Source: Treponematales bacterium
GTDB taxonomy: Bacteria; Spirochaetota; Spirochaetia; Treponematales; UBA12059
DNA length: 41,206 nt
Direction: 5' to 3'
Assembly (NCBI GenBank): GCA_041738475.1
Contig: JBGSPT010000214.1
Coordinates: 1-41,206, forward strand
Both the position numbers and the translations under genes were made by a program. Below, piece after piece: positions 9,591 through 41,033 of this stretch. The notes below the pieces were generated by a model. The model searched no databases. It was not told where the DNA came from and saw nothing but the letters and a program-made list of their open reading frames with translations. Every line of letters begins with the position of its first letter. Position 1 is the stretch's first letter.

Positions 9591-9594
9591 GCGG

Positions 9595-15789: not shown

Positions 15790-15828
15790 GCTTGTCCGTC
15801 TTCTTGGAAGCCGGGAAAGGGCTTCGGC

Positions 15829-15858
15829 TTGACTCCGGCTTCGGCATTGCCATAAGAT
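15829..15858 (+). promoter_or_regulatory. Candidate sigma70-type promoter (TTGACT-N17-ATAAGA / N18-TAAGAT) ahead of the fliA sub-cluster
   Basis: TTGACT at 15829-15834 and ATAAGAT at 15852-15858, in the 133-nt flhG-ORF15923 gap. Confidence 0.4.
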
Positions 15859-15922
15859 GTAATGAGATATCCGGGAGCCGCGTACGGGCCGACGGTAATC
15901 CGCACGGGGAGGGGCGCCAGGG

Positions 15923-16573: not shown

Positions 16574-16579
16574 TCCGAG

Positions 16580-17368
16580 ATGAATAATCCCTTGTTGGAA
16601 CATACGACCGAAGAGGAACTCTGGGTGGAGTACAAGCGGAAACGGGATCCCGCCATCCGCGAGGCCTTCATCAAACAGTACGCTCCACTGGTCAAATACG
16701 TGGCCGGGAAGGTCGCTTCCTCGATGCCCCATTCCGTGGAATTCGAGGACCTCGTCGGCTTCGGCGTCTTCGGTCTCATCGACGCCATCGACAAGTTCGA
16801 TCCCGAAAAGAACGTCAAGTTCAAGACCTACGCGGTCACCCGCATCCGGGGTGCCATCTTCGACGAGCTTAGGTCCATAGACTGGGTTCCGCGGTCGGTC
16901 CGGCAAAAGACCAAGGAGCTGGAGGAGGCGATCCAGCAGCTGGAATCCAAACTTGGGCGCCCCGCCTCGGACACGGAGATCGCCCAGGCCATGGGTGTCA
17001 CCGAGGACGAGCTGGCCAAGACCATGCTGAAGATCTCCGGCACCGCCGTCCTCTCCCTCAACGACGTGTGGTATTCCGGGGACGACGCGGACAAGATCTC
17101 CATCGGCGACAGCATCGAAAGCCCGGGCAGCCTCAACCCGGATTCCATGATCGAGAGGGAGGAGATCCGGCGGGTAATCGTCCAGGCCATCCAGGAATTG
17201 CCCGATAAGGAAAAGAAGGTGCTCGTGCTCTACTATTACGAGGAGCTCACCCTCAAGGAGATCGGACAGGTGCTCGAGGTCACTGAATCCCGGGTCAGCC
17301 AGCTGCATACCAAGGCCATACTCCGGCTGAGGGCCAAACTCACGAACATCCGGAAAGGGATCGTATAG
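16580..17368 (+). CDS. fliA: Flagellar sigma factor sigma28 (FliA/WhiG family)
   Basis: Region 2 (FGVFGLIDAIDKFDPEKNVKFKTYAVTRIRGAIFDELR), region 3, and region 4 (KEKKVLVLYYYEELTLKEIGQVLEVTESRVSQLHTKAILRLR). Confidence 0.9.
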   Translation: MNNPLLEHTTEEELWVEYKRKRDPAIREAFIKQYAPLVKYVAGKVASSMPHSVEFEDLVGFGVFGLIDAIDKFDPEKNVKFKTYAVTRIRGAIFDELRSIDWVPRSVRQKTKELEEAIQQLESKLGRPASDTEIAQAMGVTEDELAKTMLKISGTAVLSLNDVWYSGDDADKISIGDSIESPGSLNPDSMIEREEIRRVIVQAIQELPDKEKKVLVLYYYEELTLKEIGQVLEVTESRVSQLHTKAILRLRAKLTNIRKGIV

Positions 17369-17370
17369 CC

Positions 17371-19356
17371 ATGCCCGGCGCGATCGGGCTTCCGGAAATA
17401 CAGGAACTCATGCGCCGATACCTGGACGAGGACAGGGTTAAAACCTCGGTGGCCGCGGAGGGAGCGTCCCTGGAGGAGGCCCTGCGCAACGCGGCGATCC
17501 AGCTGGAGTGCCCCGTGGCTTCTTTGGATTTCGAGGTCGTGGAAAAGGGGGTTTCCGGAACCCTGGGTCTCGGACGGAAACCTTGGAAGATACGGGCATA
17601 CAAGGCTTCCGCCAAGAAAGAGGTGGCCGCCGCGGAAACCGCGTTCGGAGAGGGCATCCTCTCGGAGGATTTCGGAGCGGATCAGGAGCCGAAGGACAGG
17701 GACGGATCCGTCTTCGTGAGGCTCTCCCAGGACGGCGCCATGCTCAAGGTCATCCCCCCCGCGGGCCGGGGTCGCAAGGCTACCGAGAAAAGCGCCATGG
17801 ACAGGCTGCACGAGCGCGGGGTTCACGATATCGACGAGCCCCTCGTCCGGGAAGTCGTGCGCCTGGCTTCCGGAGAATACGTGCTGGTCGGCAAGTTCGT
17901 CATCAATCCCGCCAACGACGCCCTGATGACCGTGGACGTGGGAGACCAGGACATGAAGGCCTACGTCATGCTCACCGCGCCGGGACCCGGAGGCTGCGAC
18001 CTCTCCGCGGACTCCATCCTGTCCTTCCTGCGGAACAACAAGGTCGTGTACGGCATCAATGAGGACGTCCTGCAGGAGCTGGAGGACCGTCCCCGGTACC
18101 GGGAGCCCACCCTCGCGGCGGAAGGTTCCCGTCCCCAGAACGGCCGGGACGCCTACATGCAGTTCAACTTCAGCACCGACAAGACCGAGATCCACCTGAA
18201 GGAGAGTTCCGACGGGCGCGTCAATTTCAAGGAACTGGGCTTGATCCAGAACGTGGTGGCCGGACAGCCCTTGGCGCGCAAGGTGCCCGCGGAGAACGCG
18301 ATTCCGGGTCGGACAGTGACCGGGAAGATACTCCCCGCCCGGAACGGAAAGGACATCCCCCTGCCCCTGGGCAAGAACGTCCGCGTCTCCGAAGACGGGG
18401 TCACGGTCCTGGCGGAAATAAACGGCCAGGTGACCTATATCGGCGGAAAGATCAACGTGGAGGAAGTCTTCACGGTCCAGGGCGACGTGAACCTGAAATC
18501 CGGGAATGTCATGTTCCTGGGTACGGTGCTCGTGCAGGGTAACGTGGAGGACGGCTTCATCGTAAAGGCCTCGGGAAACATCGAAGTACACGGAAACGTA
18601 GGTAAAAGCGAGCTCGTGGCCGAGGGCGACATCATCGTCCATCAGGGTATCACGGGAAAATCGGGGGGCTCCATCCTCGCGGGCAAGAACGTCTGGGCGA
18701 AATTCATAGAAAACGCCAAGGTCGAGGCCGGCGAGTCCGTCATCGTGTCCGACGGCATCGTAAACTCCGACGTCACCGCCAACAAGAAGATCATCTGCCA
18801 GGGAAAACGCGCCGCCATGGTCGGCGGGCACTTCCGAGCCTGCGAGGAGATCAACACCAAGACCCTGGGCTCCCCCGTGGGCGGCACCGAGACGGTCTGC
18901 GAAGTCGGCTACGACCCCAAGAGCAAGGAGCGGATGGACCATCTCAACCAACAGGTTTCCCAGTTGAAGCACCAGATCGAGGAGATGGACAAGAACATCT
19001 CCACCCTCCAGATCCTCAAGAAACAGCGGAAGACCCTGCCGGACGAGAAGGAGGCCATACTCCAGGAGAGCGTGGCCAAACGCGGGGAGATCGCGGAAGA
19101 AGCCGCAGGGCTTGCCAAGGAGATCGAATCCATACAGGCCTATCTTACCAATCTGAAGACCCGGGGCAAGGTCAGCGTCTCCGGCAAGGCCCACCCCGGG
19201 GTCCGGATCATCATCAAGGACGTGGTGGAGGAGCTCAAGACCGACCAGAAGGGTATAACCTTCTACCTGGACAACATGCTGATCAAGAAGACGAAGTACG
19301 AGGAATTGGACGACGAAAACGTCCGCAGGGGGCCGGATGCCTATAAAGCCGATTGA
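17371..19356 (+). CDS. DUF342/FapA-family protein (flagellar-assembly-associated, beta-helix repeats plus C-terminal coiled coil)
   Basis: The repetitive G-x-V/I beta-helix region (GNVMFLGTVLVQGNVEDGFIVKASGNIEVHGNVGKSELVAEGDIIVHQGI...) and the KRAAMVGGHFRACEEINTKTLGSPVGGTETVCEVGYDP motif are characteristic of DUF342. It starts 3 nt after the fliA stop. Confidence 0.8.
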   Translation: MPGAIGLPEIQELMRRYLDEDRVKTSVAAEGASLEEALRNAAIQLECPVASLDFEVVEKGVSGTLGLGRKPWKIRAYKASAKKEVAAAETAFGEGILSEDFGADQEPKDRDGSVFVRLSQDGAMLKVIPPAGRGRKATEKSAMDRLHERGVHDIDEPLVREVVRLASGEYVLVGKFVINPANDALMTVDVGDQDMKAYVMLTAPGPGGCDLSADSILSFLRNNKVVYGINEDVLQELEDRPRYREPTLAAEGSRPQNGRDAYMQFNFSTDKTEIHLKESSDGRVNFKELGLIQNVVAGQPLARKVPAENAIPGRTVTGKILPARNGKDIPLPLGKNVRVSEDGVTVLAEINGQVTYIGGKINVEEVFTVQGDVNLKSGNVMFLGTVLVQGNVEDGFIVKASGNIEVHGNVGKSELVAEGDIIVHQGITGKSGGSILAGKNVWAKFIENAKVEAGESVIVSDGIVNSDVTANKKIICQGKRAAMVGGHFRACEEINTKTLGSPVGGTETVCEVGYDPKSKERMDHLNQQVSQLKHQIEEMDKNISTLQILKKQRKTLPDEKEAILQESVAKRGEIAEEAAGLAKEIESIQAYLTNLKTRGKVSVSGKAHPGVRIIIKDVVEELKTDQKGITFYLDNMLIKKTKYEELDDENVRRGPDAYKAD

Positions 19357-19662: not shown

Positions 19663-20391
19663 ATGACGCAGTTCTCAGTCCTTCTCGCCGTGAACCTGGC
19701 CGGCTTGGTCCTTATATTCCTCTATGTCCGCGGGCGCATACGGAAGGCCCTGGAGGTGGAAGGACTTCAGGAACGGCTGAGGGAAGAGCTGGGCCAGCTC
19801 GTCCGGGACCTGAACCAGACTACGGATCGAAATATCACGCTCCTCGAGGACGCCGTGCGTTCCCTGAAAGATGCGGTGGTCGAGGCGGATCGCAGGGCGG
19901 TGGTGCTCCGCAGGGAAGCCGAGCGGAGGATCCAGGAAGGGGCCGTGTACGACAGGATGGGGCGCATGCGGCAGACGGCTTCCGTCGGCGGAGAACCCGA
20001 CCGTACGGATGGCGCTCCGGTGCCCGTGGGACGCGCAGTCGGGCACCCGGTATCCTCATCGCGGGATCCGGAACCATATCAGGCCGACCGGAAAGATCCG
20101 GCCCGGCCCGGCGCGCCCGGGAGCCCCAGAACCGTACCCCGTTCCGAGGCCGGGCACGACTTTCCGGGCGCCGGGCCAGCGCCGCTTCAGCCTTCCATAC
20201 CCTTCGTCTCCTTCTCCTCCACGCCCTTGAGATCCGCCCCTCCCCTCAAGGAGGAGGTGCTGTCTTTGAACCGTCGGGGAATCTCCTCGGATCTCATCGC
20301 GGCAAAGCTGGGGGTCACGGTGGCCGAGGTCGAGCTGATCGTGTCCCTGGAGGAGCAGAAAGGCCTGGCGGGCCGGGAGGGGGAACCGTGA
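19663..20391 (+). CDS. Hypothetical membrane-anchored protein with coiled coil and a C-terminal HTH-like motif
   Basis: N-terminal TM (FSVLLAVNLAGLVLIFLYV) and a coiled coil (LQERLREELGQLVRDLNQTTDRNITLLEDAVRSLKD). The C-terminus LNRRGISSDLIAAKLGVTVAEVELIVSLEE resembles a small HTH. It starts 3 nt after the preceding stop, and its stop overlaps the next gene's start (GTGA). Confidence 0.5.
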   Translation: MTQFSVLLAVNLAGLVLIFLYVRGRIRKALEVEGLQERLREELGQLVRDLNQTTDRNITLLEDAVRSLKDAVVEADRRAVVLRREAERRIQEGAVYDRMGRMRQTASVGGEPDRTDGAPVPVGRAVGHPVSSSRDPEPYQADRKDPARPGAPGSPRTVPRSEAGHDFPGAGPAPLQPSIPFVSFSSTPLRSAPPLKEEVLSLNRRGISSDLIAAKLGVTVAEVELIVSLEEQKGLAGREGEP

Positions 20392-22055
20392 CCCGCAGCA
20401 TGCTGGGCATCGACTTCGGCACCACAAATACCCTGTGCGCCTGGATCGATAACCAAAAGCCCCAGATGATTCCGAACGACCGGGGCAGCCGAACCACTCC
20501 ATCCGTGGTAGCCCTTTCCCATTCCGGCGAGATCCTGGTGGGCGAATCCGCGAAAAACCAGGCGGTCGCGTCTCCCCGGATGACCGTGGCCGGGATCAAG
20601 CGGCGCCTGGGAAGCCGGGACCCCCTCCGCCTAGGCGGACGGTCCTTCCTGCCCGAGGAGGCGGCTTCCTGGATCTTCGCCAAGGTGAAGCGGGACGCTG
20701 AGTCCTTCCTGGGTTTTCCGGTCGAACAGGCGGTTGTTTCCGTGCCCGCCCGCTTCGGGGAGGCCCAGCGCAGGGCCGTCAAGGAAGCCGCCCGACGGGC
20801 GGGCCTCGAGGTTCCCAGGCTGGTGAACGAGCCTACCGCGGCAGCGGTAGCCCGGGCCTTCTTGAATCCCGGGGACTCCGATTCCGAACGGATCGTGCTG
20901 GTCTACGATTTCGGGGGGGGGACCTTCGACGTGACAGTCCTCGCCGCCCGGGGGCGTACCTGCGAGGTACTTTCCTCGGCGGGGGATGACCGGCTGGGAG
21001 GCATGGATATCGACCTTCTGCTCTACCGCGAGGCGGCCGAGGCGTTTCGCCGGGACTGGGGAGTGGATCCGGATTCGGATCCCTTCCTGGCCCAGCAGCT
21101 CATGGACCTTTCCGAGCGGGCTAAGATCGAGCTTTCGTCCCGAACCGAGGCTTCCATTACCATTCCCTTCCTCAACGCGGGGAAAGGCGTCGCCCATCCC
21201 TCCTTCGACCTCGGTCGTGATCGGCTGGAGGACCTTCTCCGGCCCCTGGCGGAACGGAGCCTTGCCCTGGTCCGGACCGCCCTCGACGAGGCGGGCAAAA
21301 AACCCCGGGAAGTGGGCGCCCTCGTGCTGTCCGGAGGATCCAGCCGAATTCCCCTGGTCCGGAGGATGATCGCGGAGCTTCTGCCACTGGAACCTGAGGG
21401 CCGGGTGAATCCCGAGGAGATCGTCGCGGTCGGCGCGGCGGTGGAGGCCGCGATCCTGTCGGGACGGGCTGGCGGATTCTCGGTGCGGGACGTCAATTCC
21501 AGGACCTACGGGGTGGAGATCGAGGGAGGCCGCTTCGTGGAGCTTCTTCCTAGGAACGAGCCCCTGCCTGCGCGGAAGCGCAGGGTGTTCACGACGGTCG
21601 CGGACGATCAGGAGTCCGTGGAGATCCATATCCTCCAAGGAGATTCGGGTTCCGCCGCGGAGAACACCTCCCTGGGACGATTCCTGCTGCCCGGTATTCG
21701 TAAGGCCGGCAGGGGAGAGCCGAAGATACAGGTCGAGTTTTCCATCGACGAGAGCGACCTGTTGCGGGTGCGCGCCTTGGATCTGGATACCCGCACGGAG
21801 CAGGCGGTGGTCGTCACGGGTTCCGGCGCGGACTCCGGGGATTCGGAAAAGCTCGCGCGCCTGGCCGCCCGGGTCCGGGCCCTTGCCGACTCGGAGGACA
21901 TCGACAACGGTTTCCGCTCCGAGGTCGAGGAAATCCTCGCCCGGGCCGCGGCGGCCGTGGATTCCGGGTCCGAAGAGGATCGGAGGCTTGCCCGGTCTTC
22001 GCTGGAGGCGGTGATCGGGGAACTCCTGGCCCTGAAGAGGGTCGCCTTCCCATGA
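20388..22055 (+). CDS. Hsp70-family ATPase paralogue with a shortened C-terminal lid (555 aa)
   Basis: Phosphate-1 motif GIDFGTTNT, VSVPARFGEAQRRAVKEAARRAGLEVPRLVNEPTAAAV, phosphate-2 motif VYDFGGGTFDVTVL, and adenosine motif LVLSGGSSRIPLV. A beta-sandwich SBD is present (VEIHILQGDSGSAAENTSLGRFLL...IQVEFSIDESDLLRV), with only about 70 aa after it. GGAGG lies 7 nt before GTG 20388. Confidence 0.85.
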   Translation: MTRSMLGIDFGTTNTLCAWIDNQKPQMIPNDRGSRTTPSVVALSHSGEILVGESAKNQAVASPRMTVAGIKRRLGSRDPLRLGGRSFLPEEAASWIFAKVKRDAESFLGFPVEQAVVSVPARFGEAQRRAVKEAARRAGLEVPRLVNEPTAAAVARAFLNPGDSDSERIVLVYDFGGGTFDVTVLAARGRTCEVLSSAGDDRLGGMDIDLLLYREAAEAFRRDWGVDPDSDPFLAQQLMDLSERAKIELSSRTEASITIPFLNAGKGVAHPSFDLGRDRLEDLLRPLAERSLALVRTALDEAGKKPREVGALVLSGGSSRIPLVRRMIAELLPLEPEGRVNPEEIVAVGAAVEAAILSGRAGGFSVRDVNSRTYGVEIEGGRFVELLPRNEPLPARKRRVFTTVADDQESVEIHILQGDSGSAAENTSLGRFLLPGIRKAGRGEPKIQVEFSIDESDLLRVRALDLDTRTEQAVVVTGSGADSGDSEKLARLAARVRALADSEDIDNGFRSEVEEILARAAAAVDSGSEEDRRLARSSLEAVIGELLALKRVAFP

Positions 22056-22660
22056 GGAGCGATCGGGAGCTCTGGGCCGTGTTCGGCCTGCCGCCGGGCG
22101 CGGATTCCCGGGACTTGAAGCGGGCGTTCCGCCAGCTCACAAAGCGTTATCATCCCGACTCGTCCAAGGATCCCGCCACGGCCCGGCGGTTTTCCCGGGT
22201 CGTCCGCGTGTACAAGCTCCTGTCCCTGAAGACCGGGGAGCCCCGGGAGGACTCGAAGGGGGAGCCCTTCCTCGACCGGGAGGAGGACCTTTTCGCCCTG
22301 GGTACCGAGTTTACAGTTTCCCGGGACGAACGCACCCGAGTGGAGGCGGTGAAGCGGCTGGGGCTGTCCGGCAAGAAGAGCGCCTATATCTTCCTGCGAA
22401 AGGCCCTGTACGACGATTCCCCGGAAGTAGCGGCCCAGGCGGTCCGATCCGTGGCACTTCTGGGAATCCGACAGGCGGACGGGGAGATCGCCAGCCTCTT
22501 TTCCCGTTCCGGCCCGGGCCTTAAAAAAACGATCCTGGAGACGGCCCGGGGGACCCGGGAACCCGTGTTCCTCCCGGCGCTGAGGGCGGCCGCTTCGGAT
22601 CCGAACGGGGAGGTCTCCGCGGCGGCGTCGGAGATCCTGGGCCTTATCCTGGGCTGTTGA
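22052..22660 (+). CDS. J-domain protein with C-terminal HEAT/PBS-lyase-like repeats (202 aa)
   Basis: J-domain with an HPD tripeptide (DLKRAFRQLTKRYHPDSSKD). This is followed by RVEAVKRLGLSG...YDDSPEVAAQAVRSVALLG...AASDPNGEVSAAASEIL, which looks like HEAT repeats. There is no G/F or Zn-finger region. ATGA overlap with the Hsp70 paralogue. Confidence 0.8.
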   Translation: MRSDRELWAVFGLPPGADSRDLKRAFRQLTKRYHPDSSKDPATARRFSRVVRVYKLLSLKTGEPREDSKGEPFLDREEDLFALGTEFTVSRDERTRVEAVKRLGLSGKKSAYIFLRKALYDDSPEVAAQAVRSVALLGIRQADGEIASLFSRSGPGLKKTILETARGTREPVFLPALRAAASDPNGEVSAAASEILGLILGC

Positions 22661-22702: not shown

Positions 22703-24067
22703 TCATTCCTCCGGCCGGGCGCCGTCGATACCGTATTCCTGGAGTTTCTGGTACAGGGTCTTGCGCCCGATGCCCAGGATTTCCGCGGTCCGGCTTTTAT
22801 TGCCCCCCTGGGCGGCCAGGGTCTCCCGTATCAGTATCTTTTCCGCCTCCGCCAGGGAGGAGCCTGAGGGGACCCGGATCGTGTCGTCCTCCTGGGCCTC
22901 CCGGATTCCCGGCGGCAGGTCCTCCAGGGTGACCAGGCTGCCTCTGGCCAGGACGACGGAACTTTCAACGCAGTTCCGGAGCTCCCGGACGTTTCCGGGC
23001 CAGGTATACGCGAAGAAGGCTGCCCGCACCTTCGTATCGAACCCCTCGAGGCTCTTGCCGTTCTCCTCGGAGAATTCCCGCAAGAACGCGCCCGCCAGGA
23101 GCGGTATATCGTCCTTCCGTTCCCTGAGGGGCGGGACATGGATGTTGACCACGTTCAGCCGATAGTAGAGATCTTCCCGGAAGCTTCCCCGCTCGATCTC
23201 CGCCTTGAGGTCACGGTTGGTGGCCGCGATCACGCGGACATCCACCTCCAGGGTTTCCTCGCCTCCGACCCGTTCGAATTTCCGTTCCTGCAGCACCCGG
23301 AGAATCTTGATCTGGACGTTCTGGTTGATCTCACCGATCTCGTCCAGGAAGAGAGTTCCCTCGTTGGCGAGTTCGAAGCGGCCCCGTTTCCTGCCCGCCG
23401 CCCCCGTAAACGCCCCCTTCTCATGGCCGAAGAGCTCGCTTTCCAGCAGGGACTCCGCGAGGGCTGCGCAGTGGACCTTCACGAAGGGCTTGTCCGCCCG
23501 GGGGGAAAGGTTGTGCAGGGCGTCCGCGATGAGTTCCTTGCCGACCCCGCTTTCCCCGGTGATGAGGACGCTTGCCCGGGTGGGCGCCACACGGCGGAGG
23601 ACATCGAAGATCTTCTTCATCTCCGGACTGCGGCCGATGATCGAGGAGATCCTCTTCTGGCTTTCTATCTCCCCCTGGAGTTCCTGGTTCTGGCGTTCGA
23701 GCTCCCGGCTTTCCAGGGCGCGGCGGATCAGCAGGGACAGGTGGTCCAGGTTGACCGGCTTGGTGATAAAGTCGAAGGCTCCCCCGCGCATGGAATCCAC
23801 GGCGTCCTCAATGGTCCCGTGCCCGGTCAGGACGATCACGGGCATCCCGGGATAGGCCCCGGCGACGCGCTTGAGGATTTCGTTTCCGGAGAGTTTCGGC
23901 ATGCGCAGGTCCGTGACGATCAGGTCGATGCGGCCCTCCTGCACGGCCCGCATCGCCTCCTCGCCGTCCGCGGCCAGGGCCACGTCATAGCCGTCCAGCC
24001 GCAGGGCCTCCGCCAGCCCTTCCCGGATGTTCCGCTCGTCGTCCGCCACAAGGATCGTGAATTTCAA
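22703..24067 (-). CDS. Sigma54-dependent response regulator / enhancer-binding protein (REC-AAA+-Fis HTH; NtrC/Rrp2-like)
   Basis: REC domain (ILVADDE...DLIVTDLRMPKLSG), Walker A GESGVGKE, the sigma54-contact loop GAFTGA (HEKGAFTGAAG), and a C-terminal HTH (NKSRTAEILGIGRKTLYQKL). The proposed TTG 24067 start (MKFTILVADDE) follows GGGGAGG. It overlaps the kinase stop by 2 nt. The ORF-track ATG is at 24100. Confidence 0.9.
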   Translation of the reverse strand: MKFTILVADDERNIREGLAEALRLDGYDVALAADGEEAMRAVQEGRIDLIVTDLRMPKLSGNEILKRVAGAYPGMPVIVLTGHGTIEDAVDSMRGGAFDFITKPVNLDHLSLLIRRALESRELERQNQELQGEIESQKRISSIIGRSPEMKKIFDVLRRVAPTRASVLITGESGVGKELIADALHNLSPRADKPFVKVHCAALAESLLESELFGHEKGAFTGAAGRKRGRFELANEGTLFLDEIGEINQNVQIKILRVLQERKFERVGGEETLEVDVRVIAATNRDLKAEIERGSFREDLYYRLNVVNIHVPPLRERKDDIPLLAGAFLREFSEENGKSLEGFDTKVRAAFFAYTWPGNVRELRNCVESSVVLARGSLVTLEDLPPGIREAQEDDTIRVPSGSSLAEAEKILIRETLAAQGGNKSRTAEILGIGRKTLYQKLQEYGIDGARPEE

Positions 24068-25269
24068 GATGCCTCCCCGGCCCGGAACTCCGCGGTCCAT
24101 GCCTCCGAGCCCGAGTCGTGGGACAGAAGGCGGCGCTCCGCGGGAGGCAGGGGCAGGGTGATGGTGAACGCCGTGCCCTCGCCCTCCTTGGATCGGACCC
24201 CGATCTCCCCGCCGTGCTCCTTGATGATCTTGAAGGTCAGGGTGAGCCCGAGGCCCGTACCCGTCTCCTTGGTCGTGAAATAGGGTTCGAAGATCTTGGG
24301 AAGGTTTTCCTCGGGGATTCCCGTGCCCGTATCCGCCACGGTCAGGAGAATCCCGTCGTCTCCCCGGTCGGTGCTCAAGGTCAGGGTTCCGCCCCGGGGC
24401 ATGGCCGCCAGGGCGTTCTGCACGAGGTTCAGGACGGCCTGCTTCATGTACCGGGGATCCAGGCTCAGGCGCGGAACCGCGGGGGAGAGGTTGCGCTCCA
24501 GCCTGACCGCGGCCCGGTCGATCTCCGGGGCCAGAAAATCCAGGAGGTCCGAGATGAGTCCGTTCAGGTCGGTTTCCATGGGGTTGATGTCCATCGGGCG
24601 GACCGCGAACAGGAAGTCCACGACGATCCTGTTGAGCCGGTCTATCTCCTCGTCCACCACGTCGAGGTAGCGGTGGATGGTCCCGGAGCGCTCGTCGCAG
24701 GACGCCTTGAGGGCCTTCCGCATCAGCTGGACGTGGATGGAAAGGGATCCCAGGGGATTCTTGATCTCGTGGGCGACCCCCGCGGCCAGGGTCGTGAGGG
24801 AGGCGAGATTTTCCGCCCGCCTGAGCTGGGCTTCCTTCCGGCGCTTGTCCGTGACCTCCTCGACATGGATCAGGTTCCCGCGGATCCGCTGGTCCCGCAC
24901 CAGGGGACTGATCGTGATCGACACGATCCGCGTGGAGCCCTTGGAGTCCAGGGCGAACTCCCGGTCCATGCGGGTTTCCTCGCTCTCAAGGGTTTCCCGG
25001 AGGAATCCCGCGATCTCCTCGTCCGCTACGCTTTCCCAGACGGGCCGGTCGTACACGTCCAGGTAGGCCAGGGGCAGAAGGCGCTCGGCGGACTTGTTGA
25101 AGAGGGTGGGCCGATGGCCGGAATCGCATACGACGATCCCGTCCAGCATGGAGTCCAACACCGTGCCCATCCTCTCGTTCTCATCCGCGAGGATGGCAAG
25201 GAGCCTGCGGATCTGCTCCTCGTTCATGCGGGGGGCCTTGGCCAGGGCCCGTTCCAGGAACCTTCTCAC
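24064..25269 (-). CDS. Cytoplasmic PAS-domain sensor histidine kinase (HisKA + HATPase_c; Hk2/NtrB-like)
   Basis: PAS domain (VLDSMLDGIVVCDSGHRPTLFNKSAERLL), H-box AAGVAHEIKNPLGSL, N-box LNLVQNALAAM, G1 motif DTGTGIPEE, and G2 motif GTGLGLTLT. No TM segment. GTG 25269 forms a GTGA overlap with the holB stop. An alternative start is ATG 25227. The track start at 25623 runs through holB and is rejected. Confidence 0.85.
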   Translation of the reverse strand: MRRFLERALAKAPRMNEEQIRRLLAILADENERMGTVLDSMLDGIVVCDSGHRPTLFNKSAERLLPLAYLDVYDRPVWESVADEEIAGFLRETLESEETRMDREFALDSKGSTRIVSITISPLVRDQRIRGNLIHVEEVTDKRRKEAQLRRAENLASLTTLAAGVAHEIKNPLGSLSIHVQLMRKALKASCDERSGTIHRYLDVVDEEIDRLNRIVVDFLFAVRPMDINPMETDLNGLISDLLDFLAPEIDRAAVRLERNLSPAVPRLSLDPRYMKQAVLNLVQNALAAMPRGGTLTLSTDRGDDGILLTVADTGTGIPEENLPKIFEPYFTTKETGTGLGLTLTFKIIKEHGGEIGVRSKEGEGTAFTITLPLPPAERRLLSHDSGSEAWTAEFRAGEAS

Positions 25270-26555
25270 GGGCCGCTCCGGAGGGGCTCCGCCATGGCTT
25301 CGGCCAGACGCTCGGCCAGGGCCGGGGGGGAGAGGTTGTAGGCCTCGTACCGGAGCTGGGCGTCCCGGATCGAGGCGGCCCATCCGGCCAGTATCGAGTC
25401 GGTCCGGGCATCGGAGACCCGGGCCTTGGATCGGACCAGCCGGGCCAGGCTCCGCAGGAACGCGGGGAAGAGGTACGACAAAGTGTCGTCTCCGGATCCG
25501 AAGCCCTTGGTGGCCGCCGAAATGTCGGAAAGAGCCGTGATGACGCCCGTATCCGTGGCGTCGCTGGAAAAGTCGAGGAGGGGGTCGGGTATGAACGCTC
25601 CGGCCCGGGAAGCCTGGTAGCAAACCGCGGAGAGAAACCGGAACGCGTACTCGTCCGTGGCGGACTCGGGCAGGGGCTTCCGGGCTGCCAGGAATTCGTC
25701 CAAGGGAAGGTCCGCCTCCCCCGGGGCGGCTCGGAAGACCTTGGAGAGGATCTCCCGGGATGCCCGGGAATCCCGGGCCCGGAACGAATAGGTTCGGACC
25801 CGGGAGAGGATGGTGGGCATGAGGGCCGCGGGGCGCGAAGACAGGAGGATGAACCGCGAGGTGGCCGGGGGTTCCTCCAGGATCTTGAGCAGGGCGTTGC
25901 GGGCTCCCTCCAGCATGCGCTCGGCGTTCTCGATCACCGCCACCTTCATCTTCCCGTAGGGGGCCAGTCTGGCCCAGCGCTCGACGGCGCGGACCTGGAA
26001 GATGGGCAGGGAGTCGGAAAGCAGGGACTCCAGCTTGTCCGCCGCGGCCAGGGCCTTGGCCGCCGCCTGGGCGATCTCCGGGAGGGGCAGGCCGGAGTCT
26101 TCGGAATCCGGACCCGCCAGTTCCGCGAGTTCCTCCAGGGTCTGGAGGAGGGCCGCCGCCTTGGACAGGCGAGATTCCTCGCCCTCGAAAAGAACAGGAT
26201 CGAAGCGACGGGCCAGCTTCCGGAGGGCCCGGAAAAAAAGGAACCGGGCGGCGCGGTTGGGCTGGCGGCCCAGGACCTCTCCGGCGGCCTTGATCTCCGC
26301 CCGCAAGGAACGCGGCCCCATCAAAAGGAGGTCCGGGTGCGAAAGGGTCCTGTGGCGCTCGCAGGAGGGACAGGGGCAGTTCCAGGCCGCGGCACCGGTT
26401 TCGCAGGACAGGGCCCGGGCGGTCTCCAGGGCGGCCGTGAGCTTTCCTGCGTTCTCCGGTCCCGCGAAGAGCAGGGAAGGGGGAAGCTCGCCCCGGGACA
26501 GGTCGGAGCGGAGGATCCGGACCGCCTCCTCCTGGCCGATCAGGTTCTCGTACAC
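25266..26555 (-). CDS. holB: DNA polymerase III delta-prime subunit-like clamp-loader protein (HolB), extended C-terminus
   Basis: MYENLIGQEEAVRILRSDLSRGELPPSLLFAGPENAGKLTAALETARALSCE...CPCPSCERHRTLSHPDLLLMGP is the delta-prime AAA+/Zn module. SRF-like ILEEPP and TILSRV motifs are present. GTG start lies 1 nt after the cvpA stop. Confidence 0.75.
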   Translation of the reverse strand: MYENLIGQEEAVRILRSDLSRGELPPSLLFAGPENAGKLTAALETARALSCETGAAAWNCPCPSCERHRTLSHPDLLLMGPRSLRAEIKAAGEVLGRQPNRAARFLFFRALRKLARRFDPVLFEGEESRLSKAAALLQTLEELAELAGPDSEDSGLPLPEIAQAAAKALAAADKLESLLSDSLPIFQVRAVERWARLAPYGKMKVAVIENAERMLEGARNALLKILEEPPATSRFILLSSRPAALMPTILSRVRTYSFRARDSRASREILSKVFRAAPGEADLPLDEFLAARKPLPESATDEYAFRFLSAVCYQASRAGAFIPDPLLDFSSDATDTGVITALSDISAATKGFGSGDDTLSYLFPAFLRSLARLVRSKARVSDARTDSILAGWAASIRDAQLRYEAYNLSPPALAERLAEAMAEPLRSGP

Positions 26556-33107: not shown

Positions 33108-33752
33108 TTATACTCGGTCCGCTGAGGGACAGAGCCCGCGAATCCCGCATTCCGGACAATCCGGATGCCTGGCGCGGCAGACGTACTTCCCGTGGCGGTT
33201 GACCGCGTGGGAAAAGGCGGTCCGATGTTCCGGCTCGATCAGGGCTTCGATGCGGCGCTCCGCGGCTGCCGGATCGCGGTTTTCCGTAAGTCCGAGCCTG
33301 TGGCATACCCGGAGGAAATGGGTGTCCGCTATGATGCCCGGCCTGCCGAAACAGGAGCTGGCCACCAGATTGGCCGTCTTCCTCCCCACCCCCGGCAGGT
33401 CGAGGAGTTCCTCCATGGATTCCGGCACCCTTCCGGCGAACCGTTCCAGGAGGATCCGGGACAGGCGTATCAGGTGGCGGGCCTTGGTCCTGTAGAAGCC
33501 CAGGGAATGGACGCAGTCCTCCAGCTCCGCAAGGTCCGCCTCGGCCAGGCGCCCGGGATCGGGCCACCTGCGGAAAAGTTCGGGTGTCACGCGGTTCACC
33601 TGGTCGTCCGTCGTCTGGGCCGAGAGCACGACCGCGACGAGCAGCTCGAAGCAGTCGCCGTGTCTCAGGAGGGGTTCCGCCCGGGGCCAGAGGGCGGTCA
33701 GGGCGATCCGAATTCGGCCGGCTCGCTCCGCCGGGGAGGGGATGGCTTCCAT
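33108..33752 (-). CDS. nth: Endonuclease III (Nth), HhH-GPD DNA glycosylase with a 4Fe-4S cluster
   Basis: LVAVVLSAQTTDDQVN, HhH motif LPGVGRKTANLV, catalytic IIADTHFLRV, and Cys cluster CRARHPDCPECGIRGLC. ATG 33752 gives 214 aa, which is typical. The track start at 34019 would cross the divergent promoter and the next gene. Confidence 0.9.
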   Translation of the reverse strand: MEAIPSPAERAGRIRIALTALWPRAEPLLRHGDCFELLVAVVLSAQTTDDQVNRVTPELFRRWPDPGRLAEADLAELEDCVHSLGFYRTKARHLIRLSRILLERFAGRVPESMEELLDLPGVGRKTANLVASSCFGRPGIIADTHFLRVCHRLGLTENRDPAAAERRIEALIEPEHRTAFSHAVNRHGKYVCRARHPDCPECGIRGLCPSADRV

Positions 33753-33815
33753 GTCCGCAGTATGCCGCACGGAAGGGAGCGGGGCAATATCATGCCGGAG
33801 AAGGAGGCTCGGATC

Positions 33816-33844
33816 TTGCACGGAGCCGGGTTGTATCCTATACT
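33816..33844 (+). promoter_or_regulatory. Candidate sigma70-type promoter (TTGCAC-N17-TATACT)
   Basis: TTGCAC at 33816-33821, a 17-nt spacer, and TATACT at 33839-33844. GGAGG at 33861-33865 lies 5 nt before ATG 33871. Confidence 0.5.
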
Positions 33845-33870
33845 TACGCCAGTTCGTCATGGAGGATTGA

Positions 33871-34308
33871 ATGAAACGGATAGTTATCGCCGCGTTCCTT
33901 ATAGCGATGGTTCTCGCCGTCTTCCCCGCGTTCTCCCAGGAATCCAAGACTGCGGACCCTCTGGCGACCCAGATCAAGAACCCTTCGGACATGTATCCCT
34001 TCCGGTTGGACGTGGTCAAGGTATTCCAGCACAGCCTGGGGTACAGGGTGGTCTATCGGGTCGGGCAGACGGAGTTCGCGGACGCCTATATCCCCATCGA
34101 ATGGTTCAAGGCCGGCGGCAAGGCGCAGCTGATCCGTTCCAACGATCCTTCCCATCCCTACATGGTCGTGTACTATCGGGAAGGCAAATTCAGCCACGTC
34201 CGCCTCTTCGTCAAGGACTTCCCGAAGGATCCTTCCTGGGGTATCCTGGAGCCCGGCCCGGACGTAGCGTCCAAATTCGAGGTCGAGGAGATCGTACCCA
34301 AGTACTGA
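33871..34308 (+). CDS. Secreted/periplasmic hypothetical protein (145 aa)
   Basis: Strong RBS and a clear signal peptide (MKRIVIAAFLIAMVLAVFPAFS/QE). The mature part is beta-rich. I do not recognise a family. Confidence 0.7.
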   Translation: MKRIVIAAFLIAMVLAVFPAFSQESKTADPLATQIKNPSDMYPFRLDVVKVFQHSLGYRVVYRVGQTEFADAYIPIEWFKAGGKAQLIRSNDPSHPYMVVYYREGKFSHVRLFVKDFPKDPSWGILEPGPDVASKFEVEEIVPKY

Positions 34309-34371
34309 GGTCGCACGGGTATCGGTCATCCGGGCTTCTCCGGACCTCGCCCGGGGCTCGAAAGGCGCACC

Positions 34372-35370
34372 ATGAACATCAAGACCGTTCCTCCCGAATT
34401 GTCGGCCTTTATAGCCGGTCATGAGGTTTTTCTCGTGGTCGGGCACAAGGAACCCGACGGCGATTGCATCGGTTCCCAGCTGGCCCTGGCTTCCTTCCTC
34501 CGAAGGACAGGCAAGAAGGCCGTCCTCCTTTCCTCGGGCCCCTTCACGCGGACGGAGATCCTTCAGTACGAACACGCCTTTCTGGACCGGGTTCCGGACG
34601 GTCTGAATCTCGCCTCCGCGGCGATCATCGTCCTGGATTGCTCGTCCCTTTCCAGGGTAGGCCGGATCGAGGAACAGCTTCCCCCTCTTCCGGTCGCCTT
34701 TATCGACCATCACGCCGCCGGGGAAGCCTCCGGGGACGTCCTGTACATCGACCCCTCGGCGCCGTCCGTGACCCGCCTGATCCAGGCGGTGATCGAGTCC
34801 TTCGGCGGGGTTCCCACCCGGGAGGAGGCGGAACTCCTCTTCTTCGGCCTCTGCACGGATACGGGATTCTTCCGCCACCTGGATGCGGCGGGTTCGGATT
34901 CCTTCCTGTCCGCCGCTAGGCTCGTCGAGCGGGGTGCCTCTCCCAAACGTGCCTTTTCGATGATCTACGGAGGGAAGTCCCTCTTCACACGGAAGCTCAT
35001 GGGGGAGATCCTCGTCCGGACGGAGCCCTATTTCGACGGGCGCCTCCTGATTTCCTACGTGACCGAGGAGGACCACAGGCGGTACGGCATCGCCAGCCGG
35101 GATTCGGACATGCTCTACCAGCTGCTCATGACCATCGCGGGCGTGGAAGCGGCCGTCGTGATCCGGCAGGAGAGCGAGAATAACTGCACCGTCGGATTCC
35201 GATCTCGGGATTCCGTGGATGTGGGCGCCGTGGCTGCACAGTTCGGAGGCGGCGGACACCGCCTGGCCGCGGGCCTCTCCATCGAAGGCCGGATCGAGGA
35301 AGTCCGGGAACGCATGCTGGAAGCCTTCGATCGAATATTTGTAACGAAGTGTAACGAATCCGGATATTGA
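34372..35370 (+). CDS. nrnA: DHH/DHHA1 phosphoesterase (NrnA-like oligoribonuclease / pAp phosphatase)
   Basis: Motifs GHKEPDGDCIGS, VLDCSS, IDHHA, and the DHHA1 motif GGGGHRLAAG. Confidence 0.85.
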   Translation: MNIKTVPPELSAFIAGHEVFLVVGHKEPDGDCIGSQLALASFLRRTGKKAVLLSSGPFTRTEILQYEHAFLDRVPDGLNLASAAIIVLDCSSLSRVGRIEEQLPPLPVAFIDHHAAGEASGDVLYIDPSAPSVTRLIQAVIESFGGVPTREEAELLFFGLCTDTGFFRHLDAAGSDSFLSAARLVERGASPKRAFSMIYGGKSLFTRKLMGEILVRTEPYFDGRLLISYVTEEDHRRYGIASRDSDMLYQLLMTIAGVEAAVVIRQESENNCTVGFRSRDSVDVGAVAAQFGGGGHRLAAGLSIEGRIEEVRERMLEAFDRIFVTKCNESGY

Positions 35371-35398
35371 ACGTTTCCGTCCCGGGCCGAATATCCGG
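35360..35398. promoter_or_regulatory. Perfect 9-bp inverted repeat CCGGATATT-N21-AATATCCGG spanning the nrnA stop (terminator hairpin or activator-binding site)
   Basis: Arms at 35360-35368 and 35390-35398. The repeat is centred about 80 nt upstream of the sigma54-type motif at 35455. Confidence 0.35.
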
Positions 35399-35454
35399 CT
35401 AATTCTCGGCCACCTAAACAGTAACCCTCCCGAGAAGGATCCTGTCGACGGACC

Positions 35455-35470
35455 TGGCACGGAACCTGCC
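35455..35470 (+). promoter_or_regulatory. Candidate sigma54 (-24/-12) promoter TGGCACG-GAAC-CTGCC
   Basis: TGGCACGGAACCTGCC satisfies GG-N10-GC. It matches TGGCACG-N4-TTGCW with mismatches only at the first T and the final W of the -12 element. It lies about 36 nt upstream of ATG 35506. Confidence 0.55.
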
Positions 35471-35505
35471 GTTGTCTCTCTCGCCGATTGGGCCGGGAGG
35501 GATCC

Positions 35506-36363
35506 ATGGAAAAAGAATCATTTCCACACATAGCGCGCCTTGCGGATACCGGTGAGGGGATGCGTGAAGCCTTGGGAGAGGTTGCGCAGGCCCTGTATCG
35601 GAATCCCCGGGTCTTCGGTCTGAAGGACGCGGACGACGTGGGTGAGCTGTTCGCCAGATATCCGGGACGGATAGAAGCCATCCTTGGAAAGTACCGGGAG
35701 GCCAAAGGGTATTTCCCTGCGTACCTGGTCGCCACCGTACGGTATCTCGCCCTGTCCCTCCGTCGGGACCGGGCGAGGGCCTTCGACCGGCAGGTCGTGT
35801 TCGAGGAGGAGGCCGTACTCTGCGCGGAAGGCGCTCCGGAACCGGAATACGGGCTATGGGAGCCGGAATCCCCCCTGCCCGAGTCCCGGGGCCGGGGCAG
35901 GTATCGCCGGCGTTCCCTCGGATCCCGATTTCTGTTCCTGAGCTTGAAGTGCGCGTGGACCGCGGACGAGGAGTTTCTCCGCCGGGCGGCCCGGACCCTC
36001 GGCCTCGATTCCGCCCTGCTCGCCGAATGTCTGTCCCGTGCCCGGGCCCGTACTCTCCGTGTGCGGGACCGATGGGAGGACAGGAAGACGGCCCGGGACG
36101 CATCCTGGGTGCGCCTGCGGGTACTGGAGCGGAGGTTGGCGCGTGAGGAAGACCCCTGCCTTCGGTCGATTTTCCGGGAGCGGATCGACAGGGAACGGGA
36201 GAGGTTCCGGCGTCGGCTCGAGGAGACGCGCCGTATGAGGCTCACGATATCGAACAAGTCGGTGGCGGAAATCCTGGGAGTGCCGAAGGGCACCGTGGAC
36301 GCCGGAATGTACCATGTCATCCGGCGCCTCCGGGACTTCAATTCCGGGTCCGATGCGGGCTAG
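35506..36363 (+). CDS. ECF-like sigma70-family / HTH regulator with a long Arg-rich insert between region-2-like and region-4-like segments (285 aa)
   Basis: DADDVGELFARYPGRIEAILGKYREAKGYFPAYLVATVRYLALSLRRDRAR resembles ECF region 2. SVAEILGVPKGTVDAGMYHVIRRLRD resembles a region 4.2 HTH. GGAGG lies 5 nt before ATG 35506. The competing minus-strand ORF 35115..36341 is Ser/Arg low-complexity. Confidence 0.5.
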   Translation: MEKESFPHIARLADTGEGMREALGEVAQALYRNPRVFGLKDADDVGELFARYPGRIEAILGKYREAKGYFPAYLVATVRYLALSLRRDRARAFDRQVVFEEEAVLCAEGAPEPEYGLWEPESPLPESRGRGRYRRRSLGSRFLFLSLKCAWTADEEFLRRAARTLGLDSALLAECLSRARARTLRVRDRWEDRKTARDASWVRLRVLERRLAREEDPCLRSIFRERIDRERERFRRRLEETRRMRLTISNKSVAEILGVPKGTVDAGMYHVIRRLRDFNSGSDAG

Positions 36364-36371
36364 AATCGGCC

Positions 36372-36974
36372 ATGCTGCTTTTTATCGCCACGAACAATGC
36401 CCACAAGGTCCGGGAGCTTTCGGATCTCTTTCCCGGGACTCGGCTCCGGACCCCCGCGGATGCGGGTATACCCTTCGAACATGACGAGGTCGAACATTCG
36501 TTCCTGGGCAACAGCCTGGGGAAAGCCCGGGCGCTGTTCGCCCTGGTGAACGCCCCGGTGTTGGCGGACGACTCGGGTCTCTGCGTGGACGCCCTGGACG
36601 GGGCTCCGGGCGTGAAGTCCGCCCGGTACGGCTCCCCGGACGGCGGCCGGACCATCCTCGGAGCCGGGGAGAAGAACGCCATTCTGCTGGAACGGATGGA
36701 GGGCCGTACGGACCGAACCTGCCGCTTCGTCTGCGCGATGACCCTGGTGCTCTCCGAGCATCGCTTCGTCTCGGTCCAGGAGACCTGCGAGGGCGTGCTT
36801 CTGGAAAGCCCCCGGGGGGAGGAAGGATTCGGATACGATCCCGTATTTCTTCTGCCCGGGGAGGGGCTGTCCATGGCCGAGCTGTCCCTGGAACGGAAGA
36901 ACCGGTTGAGCCACCGGGGCCGGGCGGCCGCCCGGATCCGGGCCGTCCTGGATTCCCTGGCGGACAGTCCCTAG
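36372..36974 (+). CDS. rdgB: Non-canonical purine NTP pyrophosphatase (RdgB/HAM1 family)
   Basis: LLFIATNNAHKVRE, ADDSGLCVDALDGAPGVKSARY, GFGYDPVF and KNRLSHRGRA. Confidence 0.9.
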   Translation: MLLFIATNNAHKVRELSDLFPGTRLRTPADAGIPFEHDEVEHSFLGNSLGKARALFALVNAPVLADDSGLCVDALDGAPGVKSARYGSPDGGRTILGAGEKNAILLERMEGRTDRTCRFVCAMTLVLSEHRFVSVQETCEGVLLESPRGEEGFGYDPVFLLPGEGLSMAELSLERKNRLSHRGRAAARIRAVLDSLADSP

Positions 36975-36983
36975 GCGAAGAAA

Positions 36984-37010
36984 AAGCCGCGGGGCAGGTG
37001 CCCGCGGCTT
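36984..37010 (-). terminator. Intrinsic terminator for rpmE (also closes convergent rdgB)
   Basis: A 10-bp perfect stem, AAGCCGCGGG (36984-36993) with CCCGCGGCTT (37001-37010), and a 7-nt loop. On the minus strand it is followed by TTTTTCTT. It lies between convergent stops at 36974 and 37047. Confidence 0.6.
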
Positions 37011-37046
37011 CTCGGTGGGTACGGCCGTCGAAGGCGGCGACCGTTC

Positions 37047-37250
37047 CTACTCCTTGATCCCGTACTTTCTCCGGAATCGTTCCACGCGTCCCGCGGTGTC
37101 GATGAGCTTCTGTTTGCCGGTAAAGAAGGGGTGGCAGGCCGAACAAATTTCGACCTGGAGATTCTTTACCGTCGAACGGGTCTCGATGACGTTGCCGCAG
37201 GCGCACGTGATGGTGGTCATTTCATACTTGGGATGGATACCCTTCTTCAC
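37047..37250 (-). CDS. rpmE: 50S ribosomal protein L31
   Basis: [28 protein letters not shown]...[32 protein letters not shown] start lies 5 nt after GGAGG. Confidence 0.95.
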
Positions 37251-37344
37251 GACAACCTCCGCGCCTATCTGGCTGCAGCCTGAAAACCGGCCTCTGACGG
37301 TATTCGCCCGGGACGAGGCGGCGGCCGCCCTCGTCCGGCTTCCC

Positions 37345-40370: not shown

Positions 40371-41033
40371 TTACGGCCCGGAATGCTCCCGGACCTTCTT
40401 CTTGATGGCCGCCAGTGCGGTTTCTCCCCGCTTGAGGCGGTCCGCCTCGGCCTTCCAGGTCTCGACGCGCTTTTCCCACTCCTCCAGCTTGGAGGCGATC
40501 CTGCGGATTCCCTCGCCCTCCGCTCCCGGAGAGGAGCCCAGGGCGTCCAACAGGGATCGGACCTCCGAGGAAACCTGCAGGGCCGAACCGGCCATCTCCT
40601 CCGCGATCCGAAGCCGGCCCTCCCGGTACTCGATCTGGCGGATCAGCTCACGGGTGCGGAGTACGGCGCGGATCCGGGCCAGCACTTCCGAGAAATTGAA
40701 GGGTTTCGTGATGTAATCGTCCGCCCCCAGCTCCAGGCCCTCCACCTTGTCCTTCACGTCGTCCATGGCGGAGAACATGATGATGGGGATGTCGGAGTAG
40801 TCCGAGTACTCCGGGCTGGTTTTCAGGAGGCGGGTCAGTTCCCAACCGGAAAGCCTGGGCATCACGTTGTCTAGGATCACCAGGTCCGGCCGATCCTTCT
40901 TGATGGCCTCCAGGGCTTCCATCCCGTTTTCCGCCTTTTCCACGCGGAAGCCGAGCTTGGAGAGCATCACGTCGAAAAACTCGAGATTGATCTGTTCGTC
41001 GTCGACGATTAGGATACGCTTCTTGTCGTCCAT
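40371..41033 (-). CDS. Response regulator: receiver domain plus C-terminal coiled coil, no recognisable output domain
   Basis: ILIVDDEQINLEFF...DLVILDNVMPRLSGWEL...IIMFSAMDD...GADDYITKPF is followed by about 95 aa of heptad-like helical sequence. Confidence 0.85.
   Translation of the reverse strand: MDDKKRILIVDDEQINLEFFDVMLSKLGFRVEKAENGMEALEAIKKDRPDLVILDNVMPRLSGWELTRLLKTSPEYSDYSDIPIIMFSAMDDVKDKVEGLELGADDYITKPFNFSEVLARIRAVLRTRELIRQIEYREGRLRIAEEMAGSALQVSSEVRSLLDALGSSPGAEGEGIRRIASKLEEWEKRVETWKAEADRLKRGETALAAIKKKVREHSGP

Follow-up and report, generated by a model that had tools for sequence, protein, structure and literature searches.

The DNA analyzed here comprises positions 1-41,206 of contig JBGSPT010000214.1 of a Treponematales bacterium (GCA_041738475.1), a stretch of 41,206 nucleotides (nt) referred to below as the window. 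Its locus at 35,455-36,363 places a sequence of the sigma-54 (RpoN) promoter type directly ahead of a gene for a 285-amino-acid (aa) protein that resembles, at a distance, the extracytoplasmic function (ECF) sigma factors; a gene for an RdgB-type pyrophosphatase follows, and a tandem GTAAC repeat lies farther upstream, at the end of a gene for a DHH-family phosphoesterase (Table 1). Spirochetes conserve sigma-54 together with one Rrp2-type activator, and to our knowledge targets of these spirochete systems have been identified only for Borrelia (rpoS) and, in part, for Leptospira. An earlier examination of the letters of the window, made with no database at hand (the sequence-only reading), had proposed that an enhancer-binding protein, sigma-54 and a second sigma-type protein may form a cascade at this locus. 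Here we combine a comparison of orthologous loci with profile searches, structure prediction and an analysis of the transcript leader, and ask how far that proposal can be carried.

A conserved promoter-type element ahead of the sigma-like gene

The element TGGCACGGAACCTGCC (TGGCACG-GAAC-CTGCC) sits in a gap of 135 nt between the end of the DHH/DHHA1 gene (35370) and the ATG at 35506, and its own end is 35 nt from that ATG. The GG (35456-57) and the GC (35468-69) are exactly 10 nt apart (GG-N10-GC); set against TGGCACG-N4-TTGCW, the -24 half is complete and the -12 half (CTGCC) has two mismatches. The sequence-only reading had described this geometry together with the full TGGCACG, and had put the site about 36 nt upstream of a well-placed GGAGG-ATG; coordinates and sequence agree with it on both counts, the ribosome-binding site being the GGGAGGG at 35495-35501.

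A homologue scan over one genome per species gave 158 relatives. The best 80 loci are all from Spirochaetota, mostly from metagenome-assembled genomes (MAGs), together with Treponema sp. TIM-1 and Alkalispirochaeta alkalica DSM 8900, and no Borrelia homologue is among them. The comparative set consisted of 87 loci (L001-L087) that carry the orthologous gene, in all 742 kb, scanned on both strands (1.48 Mb). Sites were sought as 16-mers with GG-N10-GC, scored on seven further consensus positions with a threshold of at least 5/7, and were counted by locus in the 250 nt ahead of the orthologous gene.

By this rule a site stands upstream of the gene in 66 of the 87 loci; the background frequency in these loci is 0.028 per 200 nt. 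The 64 non-identical sites yield the consensus TGGCA(C/T)G-N4-TTGC(A/T), in which the T at -14 is invariant (64/64) and the G at -20, which follows TGGCAC and was not scored by the search rule, is present in 50. Positions that flank the element show no conservation across the 64 sites, so that its conservation does not simply reflect an intergenic region conserved as a whole. Over both strands of the 742 kb, all 20 perfect sites fall within the 390 nt upstream of the sigma-like gene, a zone that makes up 2.3% of the scanned sequence and that also holds 29 of the 39 sites scoring 6/7. Position, orientation and extended consensus are kept among orthologues whose proteins are only 23-83% identical; the A. 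alkalica copy (L084), for one, carries TGGCATAGATTTTGCA upstream. From this comparison we conclude that the element is a well-supported candidate for a conserved sigma-54-type promoter of the sigma-like gene family, and that the CTGCC of the window is probably a tolerated variant of the -12 half. The proposal of a sigma-54-type promoter for this gene is thus upheld by position, orientation and consensus across orthologues, and not by the motif statistics of the window.

Two sets of loci depart from the pattern. Three that lie outside the search rule (L063, L070, L085) have TGGCACG-N4-CTGT, with a perfect -24 half and GT in place of GC at -12, a -12 element that may be degenerate or else of an unusual kind. 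Six others that lack the site form a group (Treponema sp. TIM-1, L072, and the MAGs L055, L066, L068, L082 and L086) and have a conserved palindrome, ATGACAAATGTCAT, within 170 nt upstream of the orthologous gene; its presence in place of a sigma-54 site suggests that the regulator has been replaced in these six.

Counting from the predicted start, the transcript leader in the window would be about 25 nt long, and the same rule gives leaders of 9-103 nt across the loci (median about 21 nt). At that start, or a little upstream of it, is a CU-rich stretch (35475-35485) whose sequence is complementary to the ribosome-binding site. In the short sigma-54 transcript the ribosome-binding site is mostly free (mean pairing 0.33, versus 0.49 in controls), and in a 70-nt read-through leader its pairing is 0.81, versus 0.67 in control genes (p = 7e-5), an effect that is modest in GC-rich genomes. 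That the CU-rich stretch could restrict translation to mRNA initiated by sigma-54 is a weakly supported suggestion. An anti-Shine-Dalgarno hairpin within the sigma-54 transcript itself was rejected, because the CU-rich stretch is placed at +1 or upstream of it and the ribosome-binding site is less paired than in the controls. The window has no Rfam match, and the fold of the leader RNA has a z-score of -1.1.

The sigma-like protein and its family

GC content by codon position in the open reading frame (ORF) follows the pattern expected of a real gene, and the N-termini of homologues favor the ATG at 35506 over a TTG at 35488. An exhaustive profile search gave 1,343 representatives at 50% identity (E <= 0.001), nearly all of 275-335 aa; homologues are almost all labelled hypothetical, and some records of the Joint Genome Institute (JGI) name family members "sigma24 family". 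Cluster look-ups gave only MAG and metagenome proteins and no named orthologue of T. pallidum or T. denticola, and full-text literature searches gave no mention of TP0439 and no description of this protein family or of sigma-54 targets in Treponema.

We compared 95 diverse members with the Pfam and NCBIfam profiles, for which the curated cut-offs are 42.9 bits (TIGR02937, sigma70-ECF), 24 bits (Sigma70_r2) and 25.7 bits (Sigma70_r4_2). The window protein matches TIGR02937 at E = 3.4e-6, with residues 42-277 on profile positions 26-163, and 80 of the 95 members match it at E <= 0.01 (best 2.7e-11). Members tested singly run end to end with positions 2-162 around an inserted segment of about 100 aa, and the best of them scores 37.3 bits, below the cut-off. 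Sub-threshold matches to Sigma70_r4_2 occur in 34 of the 95 (best E = 9.5e-5) and to Sigma70_r2 in 14; the family consensus reaches 19.3 bits with the former and 17.9 bits (E = 0.0027) with the latter. Nearly all other families that match the 95 members are sigma factors too.

Alignment of profiles with hhalign, using an E. coli RpoE reference identical to chain 1or7_A, places residues 5-92 of the family profile on RpoE 1-88 (E = 2e-4) and the helix-turn-helix (HTH) of the family on RpoE sigma4.2 (E = 2e-4), with an ECF profile that is low in diversity because the RpoE protein search gave only RpoE sequences 86-100% identical. Among solved structures, the best sequence matches include the ECF sigmas SigR, SigH and BldN (E = 0.07-0.3 for the sigma4 domains of SigR and SigH), and the region 2.1-2.4 pattern of the sigma2-like part, DEDD..EFF ... 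G.PFEAYL...LR, aligns with BldN and RpoE.

The AlphaFold2 model, with a predicted local distance difference test score (pLDDT) of 80.7, is all-helical: an N-terminal bundle, a disordered segment (105-132), a three-helix bundle (135-182), a long hairpin (184-243) and a C-terminal HTH. No sigma3 domain is detected in family members by Pfam profiles, and the reading of the insert as sigma3 was rejected, since those members that do match Sigma70_r3 match it with the C-terminal HTH, and their middle region has no match at all; hhalign against the window's own FliA (16580-17368) gave only a spurious HTH match.

The sequence-only reading had pointed to a region-2-like and a region-4.2-like block in this ORF and had called the protein a split or extended sigma. 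The 285-aa ORF and both quoted peptide blocks are there, and the relation to sigma70-family regions is borne out by the 80 of 95 members that match TIGR02937. The blocks themselves are co-linear with TIGR02937 and RpoE, their domain-level matches being those of the 14 and 34 members above; every match is sub-threshold, the window protein itself has none in Pfam, and structure prediction followed by Foldseek found no sigma2 fold. The protein is a single polypeptide and so not split, and a folded helical insert of about 125 aa does extend it. We regard it as a remote, sub-threshold relative of ECF-type sigma factors that scores below the curated limit for membership. In our reading, the family would be a remote and unclassified ECF-like branch of the sigma-70 proteins in which a folded insert replaces the linker, and a sigma activity of the 285-aa protein is plausible.

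Upstream repeats, candidate regulators and neighboring genes

The tandem direct repeat TGTAACGAAG-TGTAACGAAT (in full TGTAACGAAGTGTAACGAAT) is a conserved element that the sequence-only reading had missed. It shares its sequence in part with the final codons of the DHH gene, and no other such sequence occurs in the window. Upstream of the sigma-54 sites the k-mers TGTAAC/ATGTAA are enriched 27-fold, and the general form of the element is GTAA(C/A/G)-N5-GTAA(C/A/G), with a period of 10 bp and up to four copies (in L015 and L017). It is found upstream of the sigma-like gene in 54 of 88 sequences; conversely, 61 of its 64 occurrences in the 742 kb (both strands) lie no more than 450 nt upstream of a sigma-like gene, every one of the 61 in the orientation of that gene. 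Distances between repeat and promoter fall into two classes, at about -52/-62 and -100 to -190. In other loci the repeat follows the DHH stop codon, sometimes ahead of the DHH terminator, and its conservation is therefore at the DNA level. The repeat is a candidate binding site for the activator or for a co-regulator. Its format resembles the CpxR box, the site of a winged-helix response regulator, GTAAA-N4-8-GTAAA (PMC5063474). Two other ideas about it were rejected: an auto-regulated ECF promoter with TGTAAC as its -35 element, because no -10-like block is conserved at any fixed spacing, and the 220-aa response regulator of the window as the repeat-binding protein, because it has no recognizable DNA-binding domain.

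The candidate activator has a receiver, an AAA+ domain and a Fis-type HTH, and its translation includes the loop ...GHEKGAFTGA...; Pfam domains and translation confirm the GAFTGA activator and PAS kinase that the sequence-only reading had noted in the window. The kinase ORF overlaps a holB-like gene (25266-26555, - strand) by about 360 nt, and a Pro/Arg-rich stretch of some 130 residues at the start of the ORF is probably noncoding; because of this overlap, translation probably begins at the Met of MNEEQIRRLL near 25227. Activators of this type and sigma-54 are found together in nearly all cases (PMC3162934), and rpoN is presumably present here, given the GAFTGA activator. We infer the assignment of this activator from co-presence in the window, which is all that connects the activator/kinase pair with the TGGCACGGAACCTGCC promoter.

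Table 1. Features of the locus and of the candidate regulators (positions in the window; residues are those of the 285-aa protein)
Feature	Position	Strand	Basis or remark
-24/-12 promoter element TGGCACGGAACCTGCC (TGGCACG-GAAC-CTGCC), predicted	35455-35470	+	sequence and conservation in orthologous loci
Tandem direct repeat TGTAACGAAG-TGTAACGAAT	35340-35359	+	10-bp period; starts 115 nt upstream of TGGCAC
Predicted transcription start	35480-35482	+	12 nt past the C of the -12 GC; standard sigma-54 geometry
Shine-Dalgarno sequence GGGAGGG	35495-35501	+	ends 4 nt ahead of the ATG
Gene for 285-aa sigma-like protein	35506-36363	+	ORF, homologue alignment, profile matches
Sigma2-like part	residues about 17-100 (35554-35805)	+	profile and alignments
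Insert	residues 101-225 (35806-36180)	+	disordered 105-132, then three-helix bundle and long helical hairpin
Sigma4-like HTH	residues 226-280 (36181-36345)	+	invariant LGVPKGTVD motif
Ham1/RdgB-type nucleoside-triphosphate pyrophosphatase gene	36372-36974	+	Pfam Ham1p_like, E = 1.7e-53
DHH/DHHA1 (NrnA-like) phosphoesterase gene	34372-35370	+	conserved upstream neighbor
TP_0437-like gene	33871-34308	+	forms a separate unit with the DHH gene
Sigma-70-type promoter TTGCAC-N17-TATACT of the TP_0437-like/DHH unit	33815-33843	+	conserved
Sigma-54 enhancer-binding response regulator, candidate activator	22703-24100	-	Pfam Response_reg, Sigma54_activat (E = 2.3e-73), AAA_lid_14, HTH_8
PAS histidine kinase ORF, adjoining the activator gene	24064-25623	-	Pfam PAS_4, HisKA, HATPase_c
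220-aa response regulator	40371-41033	-	receiver domain; about 100 C-terminal residues match no family

The gene order TP_0437-like, DHH, sigma-like gene, Ham1 is conserved in relatives, with Ham1 as the conserved downstream neighbor in L001-L005 and L007. In the window the Ham1/RdgB gene starts 8 nt past the sigma-like stop codon, and rdgB is probably co-transcribed with the sigma-like gene. There is no strong terminator 3' of the DHH gene in the window, and several relatives have a clear one between the DHH gene and the sigma-54 site. A scan of 33700-37300 gave no sigma-70-type promoter, a point in favor of the sigma-54 reading, though TTGCAC-N17-TATACT, within that span, is read as one by its conservation. 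A second sigma-54-like match, at 33805-33820 upstream of the TP_0437-like gene, was rejected because its GG/GC pair is unconserved; it is spurious, as it overlaps the -35 element of that conserved promoter.

Elsewhere, a large flagellar gene cluster occupies 2-19356 and ends with flhF, flhG, fliA (sigma-28, 16580-17368) and, after FliA, a gene for a Jag_N/FapA-domain protein (17371-19356); the flagellar genes identified by Pfam, in a scan that ran up to the switch gene and again from flhB on, are fliK, flgD, flgE, motA, motB, fliL, fliM, a FliN-type switch gene, flhB, flhA, flhF and flhG. A gene of the Hsp70 family (555 aa) and one for a protein with a DnaJ domain and HEAT repeats (202 aa) follow at 20388-22660, convergent with the adjoining activator gene. 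The activator and its kinase belong to an operon-like run on the - strand (pgi, cvpA, holB, PAS histidine kinase, response regulator), and farther along the window are recQ, a gene for an endonuclease III-like (HhH-GPD) DNA glycosylase, rpmE and rho. The 220-aa response regulator is a conserved neighbor in L001, beside bactofilin, cinA and rho.

A possible sigma cascade and its relation to known systems

We hypothesize, as the probable though by no means assured explanation, that TGGCACGGAACCTGCC is a sigma-54 (RpoN) promoter of the sigma-like gene and rdgB, and that it belongs to a cascade leading from an activator through sigma-54 to a second sigma. Sigma-54 holoenzyme would sit on the -24/-12 element as a closed complex, which an AAA+ enhancer-binding protein would open; the most economical candidate is the phosphorylated Rrp2/AtoC-like regulator encoded at 22703-24100, itself presumably controlled by the PAS kinase. 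Transcription would start near 35481 and give a short leader with a free ribosome-binding site, and the sigma-like protein, probably with RdgB, would then be made. The divergent ECF-like product, for which we infer core binding and sigma function, may redirect core RNA polymerase to promoters of its own, so that the order would run from signal to activator to sigma-54 to second sigma. The GTAAC repeats would constitute a second, equally conserved control site, bound by the activator or by a separate direct-repeat regulator. As a sigma-54 promoter upstream of a sigma-factor gene, the locus appears to have the promoter, and its sigma factor is recognized by remote homology only.

Several observations weigh against this cascade. 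Within the window alone, TGGCAC-N5-TTGCW with up to two mismatches has 7 matches where 8.8 are expected, and TGGCAY-N6-TGC has two exact matches, the other one inside fliA on the opposite strand; as such counts are at chance level, the comparative analysis was used, and significance comes only from conservation in the orthologous loci. The -12 region CTGCC of the window site deviates from TTGCW, and about ten loci, chiefly of a MAG clade that includes Treponema sp. TIM-1, are without the site. The activator gene is 11 kb from the sigma-like gene and is linked to it in no fetched locus, and for activators that have a Fis-type HTH the usual binding sites are inverted repeats rather than direct ones. 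For the protein, no Pfam match is found at the gathering threshold, Sigma70_r2 and Sigma70_r4_2 included; all its sigma-family matches are under the curated cut-offs (26.8 versus 42.9 bits for TIGR02937), and the hhalign probabilities are only about 46%. The recognition helix of the family is TVD(A/S)G, in the invariant motif LGVPKGTVD(A/S)G, versus TV(K/R)SR in ECF sigmas, and with Asp and Gly at those positions it therefore lacks the basic residues through which ECF sigmas usually touch the -35 element. The linker between sigma2 and sigma4 of a canonical ECF sigma is about 20-30 aa, and in place of such a short unstructured linker the insert here is about 125 aa. In Foldseek the full model gave a marginal match to BldN (E = 1.3) and no other sigma domain, and the confident N-terminal model (pLDDT 87) gave none, small all-helical domains being hard cases for the method. 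No anti-sigma gene adjoins the sigma-like gene.

Some of these points would fit a different set of regulators. The promoter might depend on sigma-54 and some other enhancer-binding protein, with the repeats serving as the site of a modulating winged-helix (OmpR/CpxR-like) regulator and not as an enhancer, an arrangement that overlaps the cascade and differs from it only in which proteins act; we consider it possible, if on the doubtful side. Like the CpxR box in format (PMC5063474), the repeats have a period of one helical turn, up to four copies (L015 and L017), one orientation in all 61 upstream cases and two classes of distance from the promoter. The activator gene of the window is unlinked to the sigma-like gene in the fetched loci, and at the rpoS promoter of Borrelia, which depends on sigma-54, a second protein, BosR, occupies direct repeats (PMC3037356). 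Such a regulator is harder to reconcile with the surroundings of the locus, where no OmpR-family gene was identified and the 220-aa regulator has no recognizable DNA-binding domain, and with the single activator reported for host-associated spirochetes (PMC12655853 for Borrelia).

Other points concern the product. If the sigma-54 promoter is real and the protein is no working sigma, it may be a sigma-derived HTH regulator or an adaptor associated with RNA polymerase, its insert serving oligomerization or the binding of a partner. The sub-threshold sigma matches, the lack of a sigma2 fold in Foldseek, a recognition helix without the basic residues typical of ECF sigma4.2, and a folded insert of about 125 aa, with its long coiled-coil-like hairpin, where a short linker would normally thread through the polymerase all lean that way. 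We judge this unlikely, as members match both ends of TIGR02937 co-linearly, the region 2.1-2.4 pattern aligns with BldN and RpoE, and nearly all significant matches of the family are to sigma factors. Finally, the idea of a chance GG-N10-GC in a GC-rich intergenic region, with the gene read through from the TP_0437/DHH unit, can appeal to the chance-level counts in the window and to the lack of a strong terminator 3' of the DHH gene there, and is effectively refuted by a site conserved in 66 of 87 loci between unconserved flanks, by perfect sites that all fall at one position in 742 kb, and by the clear terminator between DHH gene and site in several relatives.

Extending the cascade beyond the window is more tentative, and we offer it at below even confidence: a two-tier sigma cascade might operate across the phylum outside Borrelia, with the sigma-like family as the main conserved sigma-54 output in many spirochetes and as a new ECF-like kind with a folded 125-aa module, its promoter gated by a dedicated GTAAC-repeat regulator and possibly by a read-through anti-Shine-Dalgarno layer. 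The logic of such a cascade is already known (Rrp2-RpoN-RpoS; HrpR/S-sigma54-HrpL). What appears new is the output family (uncharacterized, sub-threshold and insert-bearing), the breadth of the pairing of promoter and gene across Spirochaetota, and the near locus-specific tandem repeat. A sigma-54 target that is specific and conserved, and that may in turn be a sigma factor, makes the question of a spirochete cascade testable, and if T. denticola or T. pallidum carry orthologues, a long-unknown target of their Rrp2/sigma-54 systems would be named. The family also marks a gap in sigma-factor surveys, as about 1,300 clusters at 50% identity fall below annotation thresholds and are mostly labelled hypothetical; its folded insert, in contrast to the flexible ECF linker, raises the question of how the protein would fit into RNA polymerase; and the tandem repeat, through the protein that binds it, provides a second experimental entry point.

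Among known systems, the Hk2/Rrp2-RpoN-RpoS cascade of Borrelia burgdorferi (PMC3037356, PMC12655853) which controls virulence in that Lyme disease agent, is of the same phylum and shares several features with the window: a PAS kinase and an activator of receiver-AAA+-HTH type, a gene for a second sigma-type protein that has a sigma-54 -24/-12 promoter immediately ahead of it, and extra upstream direct repeats, which in Borrelia are bound by BosR (PMC3037356). It differs in that the output in the window is not RpoS, a group 2 sigma, but an ECF-like protein with a 125-aa insert, known here from sequence alone, and in that the GTAAC-N5-GTAAC repeat is unlike the BosR site. Compared with ECF (group 4) sigmas at large, the protein shares the sigma2 plus sigma4 logic, the lack of a detectable sigma3 and co-linear profile matches, and differs in scores under all curated cut-offs, in a folded insert of about 125 aa for a linker and in the TVD(A/S)G recognition helix. 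The spirochete-only groups ECF208 and ECF229 are linked to glycosyltransferases or proton-conducting transporters and have putative anti-sigma factors (PMC7826278), and the DHH/Ham1 context of the sigma-like family matches neither. The PAS kinase and the predicted sigma-54 enhancer-binding regulator of the window are like Hpk2/Rrp2 of Treponema denticola (TDE1970/TDE1969) in architecture; the Rrp2 of that species "remains unstudied" (PMC12070737). The closest match in logic is the HrpR/HrpS-sigma-54-HrpL system of Pseudomonas syringae and Erwinia. HrpL, a short ECF sigma of canonical form, scores above the family thresholds and is encoded inside a type III secretion cluster, whereas the window protein is sub-threshold, carries a large insert and is encoded between nucleotide-housekeeping genes (NrnA-like DHH and RdgB); in P. 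syringae, as would be the case here, enhancer-binding proteins and a sigma-54 promoter drive the gene of an ECF sigma with no adjacent anti-sigma (PMC5263251), so that an ECF-type sigma is controlled at the level of its transcription.

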